A stretch of DNA of 64,000 bases, taken from Podarcis pityusensis (lineage: Eukaryota). The number at the start of each line of letters is the position of its first letter. Positions within the stretch are counted from its first letter, which is position 1. A program made the position numbers and the translations under genes. The notes beneath the pieces are model-generated. The model saw only the letters and a program-made list of their open reading frames with translations, was not told the DNA's origin and did not search any database. Where the stretch lies: assembly GCA_964106645.2 (NCBI GenBank), contig OZ067043.1; one strand, given 5' to 3'. This document shows positions 28,373 to 46,565 of the stretch, piece after piece.

Positions 28373-28446
28373 TCATAACATTTTTGATTTTCTTTTTCTA
28401 GGTGATGTACCCTCTTCAAATTTTACTGCTCCATTGACAAAGTTAG
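28373..28446 (-). CDS. TRAM-like exon 11, coding part ([24 protein letters not shown])
   Basis: Acceptor TTGCAG|; stop TGA at 28375-28373; ends in a KxKxx ER-retrieval motif. Confidence 0.9.
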
Positions 28447-31400
28447 CTGCAATAAAAAGAGAAGATTAATGTAACACCAATTTGTATAAACACAAAATTG
28501 TAATCTTCTAAATTGTCAGGATTAGACTTGTATTATTACTTAAACATCCAAGTTTTATACTGGGTATCTTCTATTACATATGTCATAAATAATCTCAGTT
28601 CCTTTGTCACTTCCTTCTGCTACCCACCTCTGCAACTTATTGAAAATTCTCCCCTCTGAACATGTCTTGGCATAGTCCTTTGAAGAACCATTTTTCCAGA
28701 AAATATCCCAAGCTTCACCTTACCAAACTGCTAGACTCCCCATCTCCAACTCAAGGATAAATCTGGAAGAAAGGTAGGTGGATATTCCTATTTCCCCATA
28801 CAGTTTCCCTGTTCCCCCAATATTTGCTCCGAAACATTCTGATAGTTGGGAGGCAGCACCCGGGGCTGCAGGAGGGAGGAGGAGAAGAATCGCCAAAGAG
28901 CGTGTGAATCCCTTTTCTGCTCACAAGAGGACTCCACTGGATCAGATACTTTCATCATCAAAGGTACACAACCAGAGTTAAATCAGGGATTTAAAAACAA
29001 CTAATAGTGCAATCCAATACAAATCAGTATACTCAGAAATAAGCTTCATTCAGTCCACTTAACATGTTAAGCATACACCACGCTGCAGCCCTAGATGAAG
29101 TTTGCTTTAGACTTAACCAACAAGGTATCCTCTGTCTCTACAGCAAGATGAATGGACTGAGCAAATTACATTCTATAACACAACACCAACTCCAGTGCTA
29201 AGAAACCAAGCAAGTAACATGCTTTTCACTGGAAGCTGCCACTATAATATTGCACATTCAGCCATCAATTGCTACATATACAAATCATGCTAAACTTTAG
29301 CTGTTAAGCAATGGTTTAGTGCAGGCGTGGCCAACCTTTTTCAGCCTGAGGGCTTCAATGAGGATTGAAGCCTTCATGTCAGTAGTGGGCATGGCAAAGA
29401 CACACTTAAACAGACCATACAGGTAGCACACTTATGTTCACCAGATAATCACACAGGCACTCAGCAGAGGAGAGAAGGAGATTTCACTCCATTAAAGCAC
29501 TGGGGCAAAAAGATGGGGGAAATGAAGGAGTTTCAAAGATCTTACTTCTGAAAAGTCCCACTTCTTCCTCTGGTACAGTGTCTTTGTTAGGAGCTATAAG
29601 AGAGGAGGAACACTCCTGTTTCCCAAGCCTCTCCCATAACTTCGAACAGTGGCACTGTGCACTTTTCAGAAGTAAAATAAGCCACCGAATTTGGGAAGAG
29701 GTCACTCCTTCAGGAGGCAGGGTGGGATATAAATTTAATAATTGGATCATATATTTACTGCAATGTGCATGAGCTGAATGAGCCCAAGCTCTCCCCCCAC
29801 CTTAATTTCAAAACAAGCCAACTTTGAACCAAGAGTTATGAAGCTTGTCTAAACCAAGCATACTTGAGTTAAACCTTGATAGTGGACTTTCCCACAACAT
29901 ATTCCTTAATGATGTAAAACACTGCCAAACTGGAAAAGTAAATGAAGTCAAATGTTCTACCAGGAAAGGGTGAGGGGAAGCACATGAGCCAGACACGCAC
30001 TCCAGCTCATGTTTATCACAGTAAACCATGGTTTAGAACAACATGCCAATGTGGCAGTTATATTTTGTGACTGATAGCAGTATATCAGTATGAGGAATAT
30101 ACCTACCTTTGGATGATTCTTTCCTTGTTGGTTTAACCTTTATGTTTGTTGTTTTCTTAGGAATTTGATTCTGAATATGCTCCCTCCATTTCTTTAATTG
30201 GAAATTAATGAATTTCCACATCATCCAAGCTTGGGTCAAACAGATTGCAGCCAGACAGCTAATTCTAGTAAGTTGAAAAATGTTATATGGAAATTAATAC
30301 AACTACAAGCACTGAACAATAAATATGAAAAGTTTAGAAATAATGCATTAAATTGGCTCAAGTTATGTTGGAGGCAAGCATGTTTGAAATGATCTACATT
30401 TATGGAGTACTGAAGGAAAAAAAATTACTCAAGACATGCAACCGCACCTTTGTGAAGAGGGAAGTCACTTTCCTGTGCTTTTAGAAGCAACCTGATGTTT
30501 CTGAGTGATATGGCTAATAACTATTAATAGACCTAACAAATATGGAGCAATATCCCTCCTGTTTCCAAATACAAGTTCAAGCAGAGGATGAACTTGTCAG
30601 AGACCCCAGGCTGGTCACTGCTGGAGACAGAATGCTGAAATGACTGGAACTTACTTATTTCAAAACAGAAATTCATATATAGTTTTGCTATTTGAGCTAT
30701 CTAACACTATTCCATGTACTTCTGATTTATATCTTTCTGCGCTTGCACAAGAAGAAGCTACCAGCAAACTCCAAATAAAGAGAATATTCCCAATGTTCTG
30801 GGACAGAAGCAACAGCTGCCTATAAATCAAAGGGCATATTCCATAATTTACCATAGCTGGCATTGAGTACTGTTGTGTTTCTCCTTCCCACCCTGAACCC
30901 AGGAGGAACCAAAAATAAAGGGGGGTGTTTGAGTACACTTAGTGGGCATTGAATGCTGGCTATCTACTGGGGAGGGAAAGAACAGAAAAAGAATGGAGTG
31001 GATGAAATCCTGAACAGAAGAACTCAAGATTGCAACATTTTTGTGCAAGGTCCCGCTTGATCAATTAAGATAGATTTCAGATATCTCACACAAATTACCT
31101 ATCAACTTAATAAATGTAATATTTAAAGGAGCAATGATAAAAAACCAACAGTACATTTTCCTGCAAGAATAGCTTGTTCTTTGCCATTTATTAAATTCAC
31201 TATACCTAAGAGTTAGTATGTTGAAGTTTCCTTCTGCTATGGAAAAGCCAGGATTTTCTGCTCTTGCTAGACCAAATCCAAATGTGAGAACTGACAAAGT
31301 TAGAGTCAGAAGGCGAGCCAATATGAACAGTAGAGCCCAGAGGGTAAATCTGAAAAGAAATTCACAGTAAGTATTTCCCCCCAAATCAGTTGCTTCATGA

Positions 31401-46400: not shown

Positions 46401-46565
46401 GCCCCCCGCCCTCTCTCGCCCCCAGGCCCTAGACAGCGCTGATACCTCGAACATAAGCCCCAAGAGGAGGCCCATGGCCAGGCAGGACACGGCGTCCGCG
46501 TGGTTCTGGATAACGAACTCATGGCTCAGGACTGGCGGGCTCTTATTCTTCTTCCGCAGCCCCAT
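28373..46565 (-). CDS. TRAM-family translocating chain-associated membrane protein (TRAM1-like / 'TRAM1L1-like', TLC domain), complete 11-exon CDS, 370 aa
   Basis: Manually spliced exons: 46446-46565, 39822-39882, 38519-38637, 37625-37741, 37469-37527, 35296-35380, 34867-34937, 33693-33797, 31206-31349, 30107-30264, 28373-28446. They total 1113 nt with an open frame, GT-AG introns and consistent phases. The protein runs [24 protein letters not shown]...[11 protein letters not shown]...[13 protein letters not shown]...GFGLARAEN...MWKFINFQL...[11 protein letters not shown]. Confidence 0.95.
30107..30264 (-). CDS. TRAM-like exon 10 ([52 protein letters not shown])
   Basis: Acceptor CTAG|, donor |GTAGGT; 158 nt. 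Confidence 0.93.
31206..31349 (-). CDS. TRAM-like exon 9 ([47 protein letters not shown])
   Basis: Acceptor TTCAG|, donor |GTATA; 144 nt. Confidence 0.95.
32126..33013 (-). mobile_element. CR1 LINE, 5'-truncated (in TRAM intron 8)
   Basis: RT motif [10 protein letters not shown]...[12 protein letters not shown]...[13 protein letters not shown]-terminal [21 protein letters not shown]; (ATTCTATG)n tail. Confidence 0.95.
33693..33797 (-). CDS. TRAM-like exon 8 ([34 protein letters not shown])
   Basis: Acceptor TTCAG|, donor |GTAAT; 105 nt. Confidence 0.95.
34066..34859. mobile_element. TA-targeting non-autonomous DNA transposon (TRAM intron 7)
   Basis: TIRs CAGGCACCCCCCCACTTA / TAAGTGGGGGGACGCCTG; TA TSD. 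Confidence 0.8.
34867..34937 (-). CDS. TRAM-like exon 7 ([23 protein letters not shown])
   Basis: Acceptor CTAG|, donor |GTAAGT; 71 nt. Confidence 0.95.
35296..35380 (-). CDS. TRAM-like exon 6 ([28 protein letters not shown])
   Basis: Acceptor TTTAG|, donor |GTATG; 85 nt. Confidence 0.95.
35608..36089 (-). mobile_element. Possible solo-LTR-like relic
   Basis: TGTCATG...CATGCCA termini and an AATAAA near the 3' end; no TSD found. Confidence 0.35.
37469..37527 (-). CDS. TRAM-like exon 5 ([19 protein letters not shown])
   Basis: Acceptor TTAG|, donor |GTAAGT; 59 nt; follows a 97-nt intron. Confidence 0.92.
37625..37741 (-). CDS. TRAM-like exon 4 ([39 protein letters not shown])
   Basis: Acceptor TCTAG|, donor |GTAAGT; 117 nt. 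Confidence 0.95.
38519..38637 (-). CDS. TRAM-like exon 3 ([40 protein letters not shown])
   Basis: Acceptor TTCAG|, donor |GTAAG; 119 nt. Confidence 0.95.
39086..39297 (+). mobile_element. tRNA/CORE-type squamate SINE (Squam3/MIR-like)
   Basis: A-box GGTATAGTGGTTAG, B-box GGTTCAAATC, core GGTGACCTTGGGCCAGTCAC, AATAAATAA tail. Confidence 0.75.
39822..39882 (-). CDS. TRAM-like exon 2 ([20 protein letters not shown])
   Basis: Acceptor TTTAG|, donor |GTAAG; 61 nt; contains the NVT sequon typical of TRAM. Confidence 0.93.
40675..42367. mobile_element. TA-targeting MITE family B (TIR CCGTATTTTTCGC) with an internal tandem array
   Basis: TIRs and TA TSD; relatives at 48691-48950 and 52245-52887. 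Confidence 0.88.
40798..41990. repeat. GC-rich minisatellite, 12 units of 91 or 109 bp, each a hairpin
   Basis: Unit starts at 40798, 40907, 41016, 41107, 41198, 41307, 41398, 41489, 41581, 41690, 41781 and 41890. Confidence 0.95.
42882..43107. mobile_element. MITE family A copy
   Basis: TIRs and TA TSD. Confidence 0.85.
44375..44918 (-). mobile_element. Non-autonomous RTE-derived element (5' UTR fused to 3' tail)
   Basis: 11-bp TSD CTTTCTAATGT (44364-44374 and 44919-44929); RTE-type 3' tail; no ORF. Confidence 0.7.
45464..45886. mobile_element. MITE family A copy fused to or nested in a related MITE
   Basis: Inner copy 45464-45664, then a second element ending AAACCAAGGTACCACTG-TA. Confidence 0.75.

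Follow-up and report, generated by a model that had tools for sequence, protein, structure and literature searches.

A stretch of 64,000 nucleotides (nt) from the lizard Podarcis pityusensis (assembly GCA_964106645.2, contig OZ067043.1), referred to here as the window, carries on its minus strand an intact, spliced and expressed gene of the TRAM family. This gene is almost certainly the third TRAM of jawed vertebrates, located beside NCOA3; its origin likely lies in the second of the vertebrate genome doublings, which would make it the sister copy of TRAM1. For the whole explanation, i.e. an intact third TRAM gene derived from a genome doubling and encoding a helper of the Sec61 translocon that binds sphingolipids but has no catalytic activity, we estimate a probability of about 0.8. 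The original prediction, made from the sequence alone, had described an 11-exon TRAM gene beside NCOA3 mixing TRAM1 and TRAM2 features, and had proposed a functionally uncharacterised whole-genome-duplication paralogue retained in lizards and lost in mammals.

The gene comprises 11 GT-AG exons running from 46565 to 28373 (Table 1). They splice to 1113 nt with a single terminal stop and encode 370 amino acids (aa); all 13 motifs named in the prediction lie in frame on the minus strand. Splicing was examined in two bulk RNA runs, X23 and X24, of each of which about 12% was read. Reads joined all nine introns within 27000-40600 (introns 2 to 10), eight of them in X23 and nine in X24, as the predicted gene model demanded. 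Starting from the 3' end, the numbers of joint reads in X23/X24 were 13/4, 4/9, 0/7, 10/2, 5/6, 6/13, 3/14, 3/3 and 7/3, and each of the nine joints was also present in a contig of run X7. All bulk joint reads share one orientation, as expected of a transcript from the minus strand if the libraries are of the usual type. The exon-10 acceptor used by the reads yields the protein of 370 aa, while an AG at 30258 would give 368 aa. Intron 1 is spanned by neither of the read-mapped stretches; at exon 1, two transcript contigs cover the exon and leave the genomic stretch at the donor. The RNA runs are 90-99% alike to the window and therefore come from relatives and not from the same animal. Three read-level differences checked in the coding exons were all silent.

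In the same genome, exon 4 was matched at three places and exon 9 at four. The matches on contig C7 (33.75 Mb) and contig C3 (4.66-4.70 Mb) splice to two further intact 11-exon genes, TRAM1 and TRAM2, respectively, so that the separate loci expected by the prediction do exist. Exons 4-9 are identical in size across all three genes. The window protein shows 65.8% identity to the lizard TRAM1 and 58.5% to the lizard TRAM2, and these two share 56.7% with each other.

A fourth location, C17:18,215,620-18,216,757 (minus strand, locus L037), holds a processed pseudogene of the window gene with about 97% identity. It comprises exons 9-11 without introns and about 60 nt of the 3' untranslated region (UTR), its 5' end is missing, and it shows a premature stop and a 12-base target-site duplication without a poly(A) tail. 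It is interrupted by a 701-base 5'-truncated long interspersed nuclear element (LINE) with its own target-site duplication, which we take to be of the BovB/RTE type. This retrocopy displays the exon 9/10 and 10/11 joins independently of the reads and suggests germ-line expression of the window gene.

In a careful tree of 51 proteins and 369 columns, from which hagfish, most invertebrates, isoforms and partial proteins were left out, the window protein belongs to a clade of its own (16 rows, support 100/99), beside a TRAM1 clade (22 rows, 100/99) and a TRAM2 clade (9 rows, 100/100). The clade includes chimaera, ray, shark, bichir, teleosts, coelacanth, caecilian, turtle, crocodile, birds and squamates. 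Nesting of the window protein in lizard TRAM1 was rejected by the approximately unbiased (AU) test (p 2e-45), and the gene on C3 falls within the TRAM2 clade with the window protein outside it; the position outside both clades agrees with the prediction. Cartilaginous fish are present in each of the three clades, the zebra shark carrying all three genes, and the duplication therefore predates the split of sharks and bony fish. A quick tree of 68 rows left hagfish rows unresolved and placed one lamprey row outside the three clades, though not with firm support.

The order of the neighbouring genes points to the same origin. On C6 we found SULF at 20.68 Mb (+), NCOA at 20.70 Mb (-) and the window gene at 20.798-20.817 Mb (-), followed by a ZMYND8-type domain at 20.88 Mb (+) and EYA at 20.915-20.955 Mb (-). 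On C7, EYA is located at 33.54-33.57 Mb (+), a LACTB2-type domain at 33.749 Mb (+), TRAM1 at 33.753-33.766 Mb (+), NCOA at 33.93 Mb (+) and SULF at 34.08 Mb (-). If each block is followed along the transcription of its TRAM gene, the order in both is EYA, TRAM, NCOA and then SULF facing back, i.e. the EYA, NCOA and SULF paralogues keep the same order and orientation. These mirrored blocks, together with the cartilaginous fish in all three clades, uphold the proposed genome-duplication origin. Of 39 residues in the C6 coactivator segment, 35 are the same as in the solved structure of human NCOA3; together with the separate clade this bears out a third TRAM paralogue beside NCOA3. The C7 coactivator is more distant from NCOA3 (39.5 bits) and still more so from NCOA1 (20.5 bits), and is called NCOA2 by elimination on the basis of these scores. 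LACTB2 and this non-NCOA3 coactivator flank the TRAM1 gene on C7; the window gene has NCOA3 and the ZMYND8-type domain instead. A third NCOA lies on C3 together with TRAM2, but 115 Mb apart, at the other end.

This arrangement agrees with Table S1 of Lamb 2021 (PMC8040251), where paralogon 11 has TRAM2 in column A, [TRAM1L] in C and TRAM1 in D, and NCOA1, NCOA3 and NCOA2 occupy the same columns. According to the text of that study, the first doubling separated A and B from C and D. The table gives a [TRAM1L] gene for gar (ENSLOCG00000003967) and reedfish (ENSECRG00000022934) and leaves the cells of Xenopus, zebra finch, chicken, opossum and human empty; the gar gene lies beside NCOA3 (LG18, 8.44 vs 8.50 Mb). 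Like the window gene, [TRAM1L] is a third TRAM beside NCOA3 and a partner of TRAM1. Both the third ohnologue and the lack of it in human have thus already appeared in print, as a row of this table. The table has gar and reedfish genes only; here the gene is intact and spliced in a lizard and is found also in turtles, a crocodile, many birds, caecilians, coelacanth, teleosts and cartilaginous fish. The main text of PMC8040251 contains no mention of TRAM.

A protein search with the caecilian orthologue gave 867 matches, the best 120 of which comprised 97 window-type and 23 TRAM1-type rows; such protein lists display one name per cluster. No mammal, frog or salamander was among the 94 named window-type rows of these best 120, and two of the three unnamed ones represent clusters of teleosts and sturgeon. 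The same set did contain four rows of frogs and salamanders, all of them TRAM1-type. A search with bat TRAM1L1 returned 102 rows, including platypus and echidna TRAM1, and none was window-type. All 120 of the 120 matches listed for exon 9 were window-type (25 unnamed), and none was named as a mammal. To judge from these proteins, the gene is kept from sharks to birds across non-mammalian jawed vertebrates; the predicted retention in lizards is right for this lizard and too narrow as a description of a clade reaching from chimaera to birds. It was apparently lost in mammals, and the searches suggest a second loss in frogs and salamanders. We do not infer a loss in chickens and songbirds, since a chicken RNA study (PMC12103047) names a TRAM1L1 despite the blank cells in the table of Lamb.

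In these comparisons the window gene is the most conserved and slowest-evolving TRAM paralogue between lizard and shark. Identity between lizard and cartilaginous fish amounts to 82-85% for the window gene (3 comparisons), 72-74% for TRAM1 (3) and 69-70% for TRAM2 (2). A proline at residue 222 is present in 114 of 116 filled window-type rows, the exceptions being Turnix and a hagfish row binned by score, and otherwise in only 2 of 98 TRAM1-type, 1 of 35 TRAM2-type and 0 of 16 outgroup rows. A candidate idea that the window clade alone keeps Arg214 was dropped, as Arg occurs in 90 of 116 clade rows and in 30 of 97 TRAM1-type rows.

The TLC domain (PF03798) was detected with E 2.6e-33 in the Podarcis protein and 1e-32 in the Varanus orthologue. 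A predicted model of the latter (94% identical; predicted local distance difference test score 81) has nine long helices, and its best PDB match was the yeast ceramide synthase Lac1 (template modelling (TM) score 0.71, E 5e-11); all 8 matches at E under 0.001 were ceramide synthases. The predicted fold resembles these enzymes (TM 0.66-0.71 to yeast Lac1 and Lag1), but sequence identity to Lac1, Lag1 and CerS6 is only 16-18%. Of 115 filled rows, 114 keep the Asn55 of the N-x-T sequon. KxKxx or KKxx ends 82 of the 98 clade rows with a native-looking end, the window protein having KxKxx, a tail that is presumably a dilysine signal for the endoplasmic reticulum (ER). Binding of ceramide analogues is documented for mammalian TRAM1 and TRAM2 (PMC8665359), and for TRAM1 a loosening of the bilayer at the Sec61 lateral gate has been proposed (PMC7039644). 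Association with Sec61 and nascent chains and binding of sphingolipids are shown in these two sources for the mammalian TRAM1 and TRAM2 only. By analogy with the family, the window protein is probably a translocon helper. It would reside in the ER by means of its KxKxx tail and form a helical bundle like that of ceramide synthase, with the old enzyme cavity binding a sphingolipid without catalysis. At the lateral gate of Sec61 it may then aid weak signal peptides or transmembrane helices. Its role might partly overlap with that of TRAM1, which would explain the loss in mammals and probably in frogs and salamanders.

Alternatively it might be that the protein does a job of its own beyond TRAM1 and TRAM2, e.g. 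by responding to another lipid or by determining the topology of one specific client, and was lost together with this client in mammals and frogs. The gene is the slowest TRAM between lizard and zebra shark (82.3% vs 73.2% and 69.4% for the other two paralogues), the nearly fixed Pro222 adjoins the His aligned with CerS6 His238, and there is a precedent in TM4SF20, whose topology is controlled by TRAM2 but not by TRAM1 (PMC8665359). On the other hand no client is known, and the apparent losses in two lineages suggest dispensability. Moreover, the gene has relaxed quickly in several bird groups: identity to the lizard protein drops to 69-71% in parrots, 74% in Calidris and 66% in Turnix, compared to 84-87% in ratites, condor and duck. 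We regard such a separate job as a tentative possibility, less likely than the shared role of a translocon helper. In its fuller form, it would make the third TRAM a specialised lipid sensor of the translocon with its own clients. The fixed proline would reshape its lipid pocket, mammals on the one hand and frogs plus salamanders on the other would have lost the gene in separate events, and in parrots and shorebirds it would now be relaxing; this fuller form is equally doubtful. If it were true, a piece of membrane-protein biogenesis would be invisible to work in mammalian cells.

The fast-diverging orthologues of parrots, Turnix and sandpipers (P0076, P0078, P0091, P0120, P0130, P0440; 66-74%) also have an altered N-terminal motif, which is otherwise fixed.

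An active acyltransferase like the ceramide synthases, TLCD1 or CLN8 is very unlikely. The predicted fold is the same, His223 and Glu227 are retained, and TLCD1 and CLN8, which also have the TLC domain, are enzymes (PMC11838012). However, His211-His212 of CerS6 align to Tyr196-Ile197 and Asp239 aligns to Tyr224, and these replacements make catalysis by the window protein unlikely. Tyr196 is present in 117 of 119 filled rows, and the same replacements are seen in TRAM1 and TRAM2.

The mixture of TRAM1 and TRAM2 features stated in the original prediction was not borne out by the overall identities given above. Per exon, TRAM1 was closer in 7 of 11 cases and TRAM2 in two, with two ties. At the level of clades, 17 sites of the window clade side with TRAM1 and 11 with TRAM2; at 8 sites the clade has its own state against one shared by TRAM1 and TRAM2, and 3 sites differ in all. 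The motifs labelled TRAM2-like were in part labelled correctly, but DYPH is also present in the TRAM1 of this lizard, and its TRAM2 has YGLKD and YISLY. A chimera formed by gene conversion or exon shuffling could account for exons 6 and 11, which are slightly nearer to TRAM2 (24 vs 21 of 28 and 12 vs 9 of 24 residues), and for those of the 11 TRAM2-shared sites at which the outgroups favour the TRAM1 state (6, as opposed to 5 with the shared state, including both leucines of RLHLSK). Yet no exon is nearly identical to either paralogue (best 86%), the 11 sites are scattered along the protein, and the RLHLSK-type and YGPKD states are found in lamprey. A recent lizard duplicate of TRAM1 would not belong to a clade that takes in chimaera and sharks, and the nesting in lizard TRAM1 that it implies was rejected. 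Both origins are therefore highly improbable. The idea that all TRAM2-like sites are ancestral was only half borne out (5/11); some of them appear to be retained ancestral states, and others parallel changes or weak evidence for a link to TRAM2.

That the window gene is the lizard orthologue of mammalian TRAM1L1, the mammalian gene being the same gene minus its introns, is scarcely credible, although most matches carry RefSeq-type names to this effect and both proteins start with identical residues: mammalian TRAM1L1 is nested in placental TRAM1 (100/99; 4 of 4 rows in the careful and 9 of 9 in the quick tree), a joint clade with the window proteins was rejected (AU p 2e-7), gorilla TRAM1L1 has a higher identity to lizard TRAM1 (66.7%) than to the window protein (55.6%), shark TRAM1 has the same start, and some salmonid TRAM1 proteins are named likewise. 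Mammalian TRAM1L1, which is intronless, shares name and family with the window gene but is, according to the tree, a separate, later copy of TRAM1. The nearest named proteins, XP_028590952 and XP_053250169 of Podarcis (99.7% identity over 330 residues), represent the window gene, and their RefSeq name 'translocating chain-associated membrane protein 1-like 1' implies an orthology that the tree rejects. Since some salmonid TRAM1 proteins carry it too, the name is best regarded as a best-hit label. Window-type proteins of fish are also called Zgc:113278. The salmonid TRAM1-type proteins P0128, P0197 and P0211 are likewise named TRAM1-like 1, and this name covers three different genes.

The window gene shares with TRAM1 the 11 exons, the TLC domain, the N-x-T sequon, the KxKxx tail and an NCOA neighbour, but differs in its separate clade since before sharks, in Pro222, in its slower evolution and in that no mammalian member was found in the searches described. 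Exons and domain are also those of TRAM2, which has Gln where the window gene and TRAM1 have His223.

Several points weigh against the explanation preferred here, that of a third TRAM gene paired with TRAM1 and acting at the translocon. The sister link between window clade and TRAM1 reached a support of 92/87 only, and a grouping with TRAM2 was not rejected (AU p 0.41); the pairing with TRAM1 therefore leans on gene order and on the columns of Lamb. The gar and reedfish genes of that table are tied to the clade by their position beside NCOA3 and by the bichir protein, and not by their sequence. The loss in mammals, frogs and salamanders is read from the best 120 of 867 proteins and not from genome scans, and the predicted loss in mammals stands only to that extent; a copy diverged below about 67% would escape the protein lists, making the absence weak evidence. 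The PDB searches found no TRAM structure. Finally, the high conservation between shark and lizard and the fixed Pro222 speak against pure redundancy with TRAM1.

Among the published sources covered by a search mostly without subscription papers, we found neither a study of the function of the window gene nor one that describes it as kept in reptiles and birds. The accessible text of PMC12469465 and PMC11838012 names only three human TRAM proteins. TRAM was not found in PMC5901865 (text and 12 of 19 supplements), PMC5635590 (text), PMC7269912 (3 supplements) or PMC13450315 (text and 1 supplement), the online database of which may list the gene.

Table 1. Exons and untranslated regions of the third TRAM gene of P. 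pityusensis (positions in the window)
Feature	Position	Strand	Remarks
5' UTR	46566..46745	-	As far as the transcript contig extends; transcription start may lie further
Coding exon 1	46446..46565	-	120 nt; ATG at 46565; covered by transcript contigs
Exon 2	39822..39882	-	61 nt; N55-V-T glycosylation sequon; read-supported
Exon 3	38519..38637	-	119 nt; read-supported
Exon 4	37625..37741	-	117 nt; start of TLC domain at about residue 115; read-supported
Exon 5	37469..37527	-	59 nt; read-supported
Exon 6	35296..35380	-	85 nt; read-supported
Exon 7	34867..34937	-	71 nt; Tyr196-Ile197 at ceramide synthase His-His position; read-supported
Exon 8	33693..33797	-	105 nt; clade-specific Pro222; read-supported
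Exon 9	31206..31349	-	144 nt; read-supported
Exon 10	30107..30264	-	158 nt; acceptor 30264 used by reads
Exon 11, coding part	28373..28446	-	74 nt; KxKxx tail, then TGA; read-supported
3' UTR	27000..28372	-	Minimum length; stranded reads continue to 27000

According to the CpG ratios, a CpG island at about 46000-47400 encloses the 5' UTR. The X2 isoforms of Podarcis in RefSeq have a different N-terminus, with exon 1 in another frame plus a short added segment. This segment matches a repeat-like stretch of intron 1 (45,109-45,176, minus strand) and is probably an exonised repeat or an artefact of the model. Intron 1 also contains a GC-rich tandem array at 40,798-41,982 with units of 91 and 109 bases and internal inverted repeats, which looks like part of a transposon remnant. 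In intron 8 (32,127-33,030) there is a 3' fragment of a LINE with reverse-transcriptase frames and heavy multi-copy read cover, presumably of the CR1 type.

Outside the gene, a strong CpG island at 17,000-18,250 probably represents the start of minus-strand NCOA3, with its promoter and a non-coding first exon. In a search by motif, neither ZMYND8 nor NCOA3 showed its first coding exon within the window. In the second read-mapped stretch repeats dominated the reads, and no splice joint of a neighbouring gene was seen there. A strand-biased pile of reads at about 53,900-54,000 (133 and 333 reads deep) without a long frame probably stems from a repeat transcribed elsewhere, or possibly from a small RNA.

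As the ohnologue trio is already listed in a published table, the surprise is limited. Our analysis adds the retention in reptiles, birds, caecilians and sharks, the conservation ranking, Pro222 and the retrocopy on C17. It also uncovers a naming trap: 'TRAM1L1' in sharks, fish, reptiles and birds usually denotes the old third gene and not the mammalian one, and results on expression or knockouts are therefore not transferable by name. The function of TRAM is still unsettled, and a third natural variant, present in common model fish but not in human cells, allows a clean rescue test of the properties that TRAM proteins have in common. A strongly conserved gene that was apparently lost more than once would furthermore lend itself well to research on how genes are lost. 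Why mammals, and probably frogs and salamanders, gave up the most conserved copy is the question worth following.

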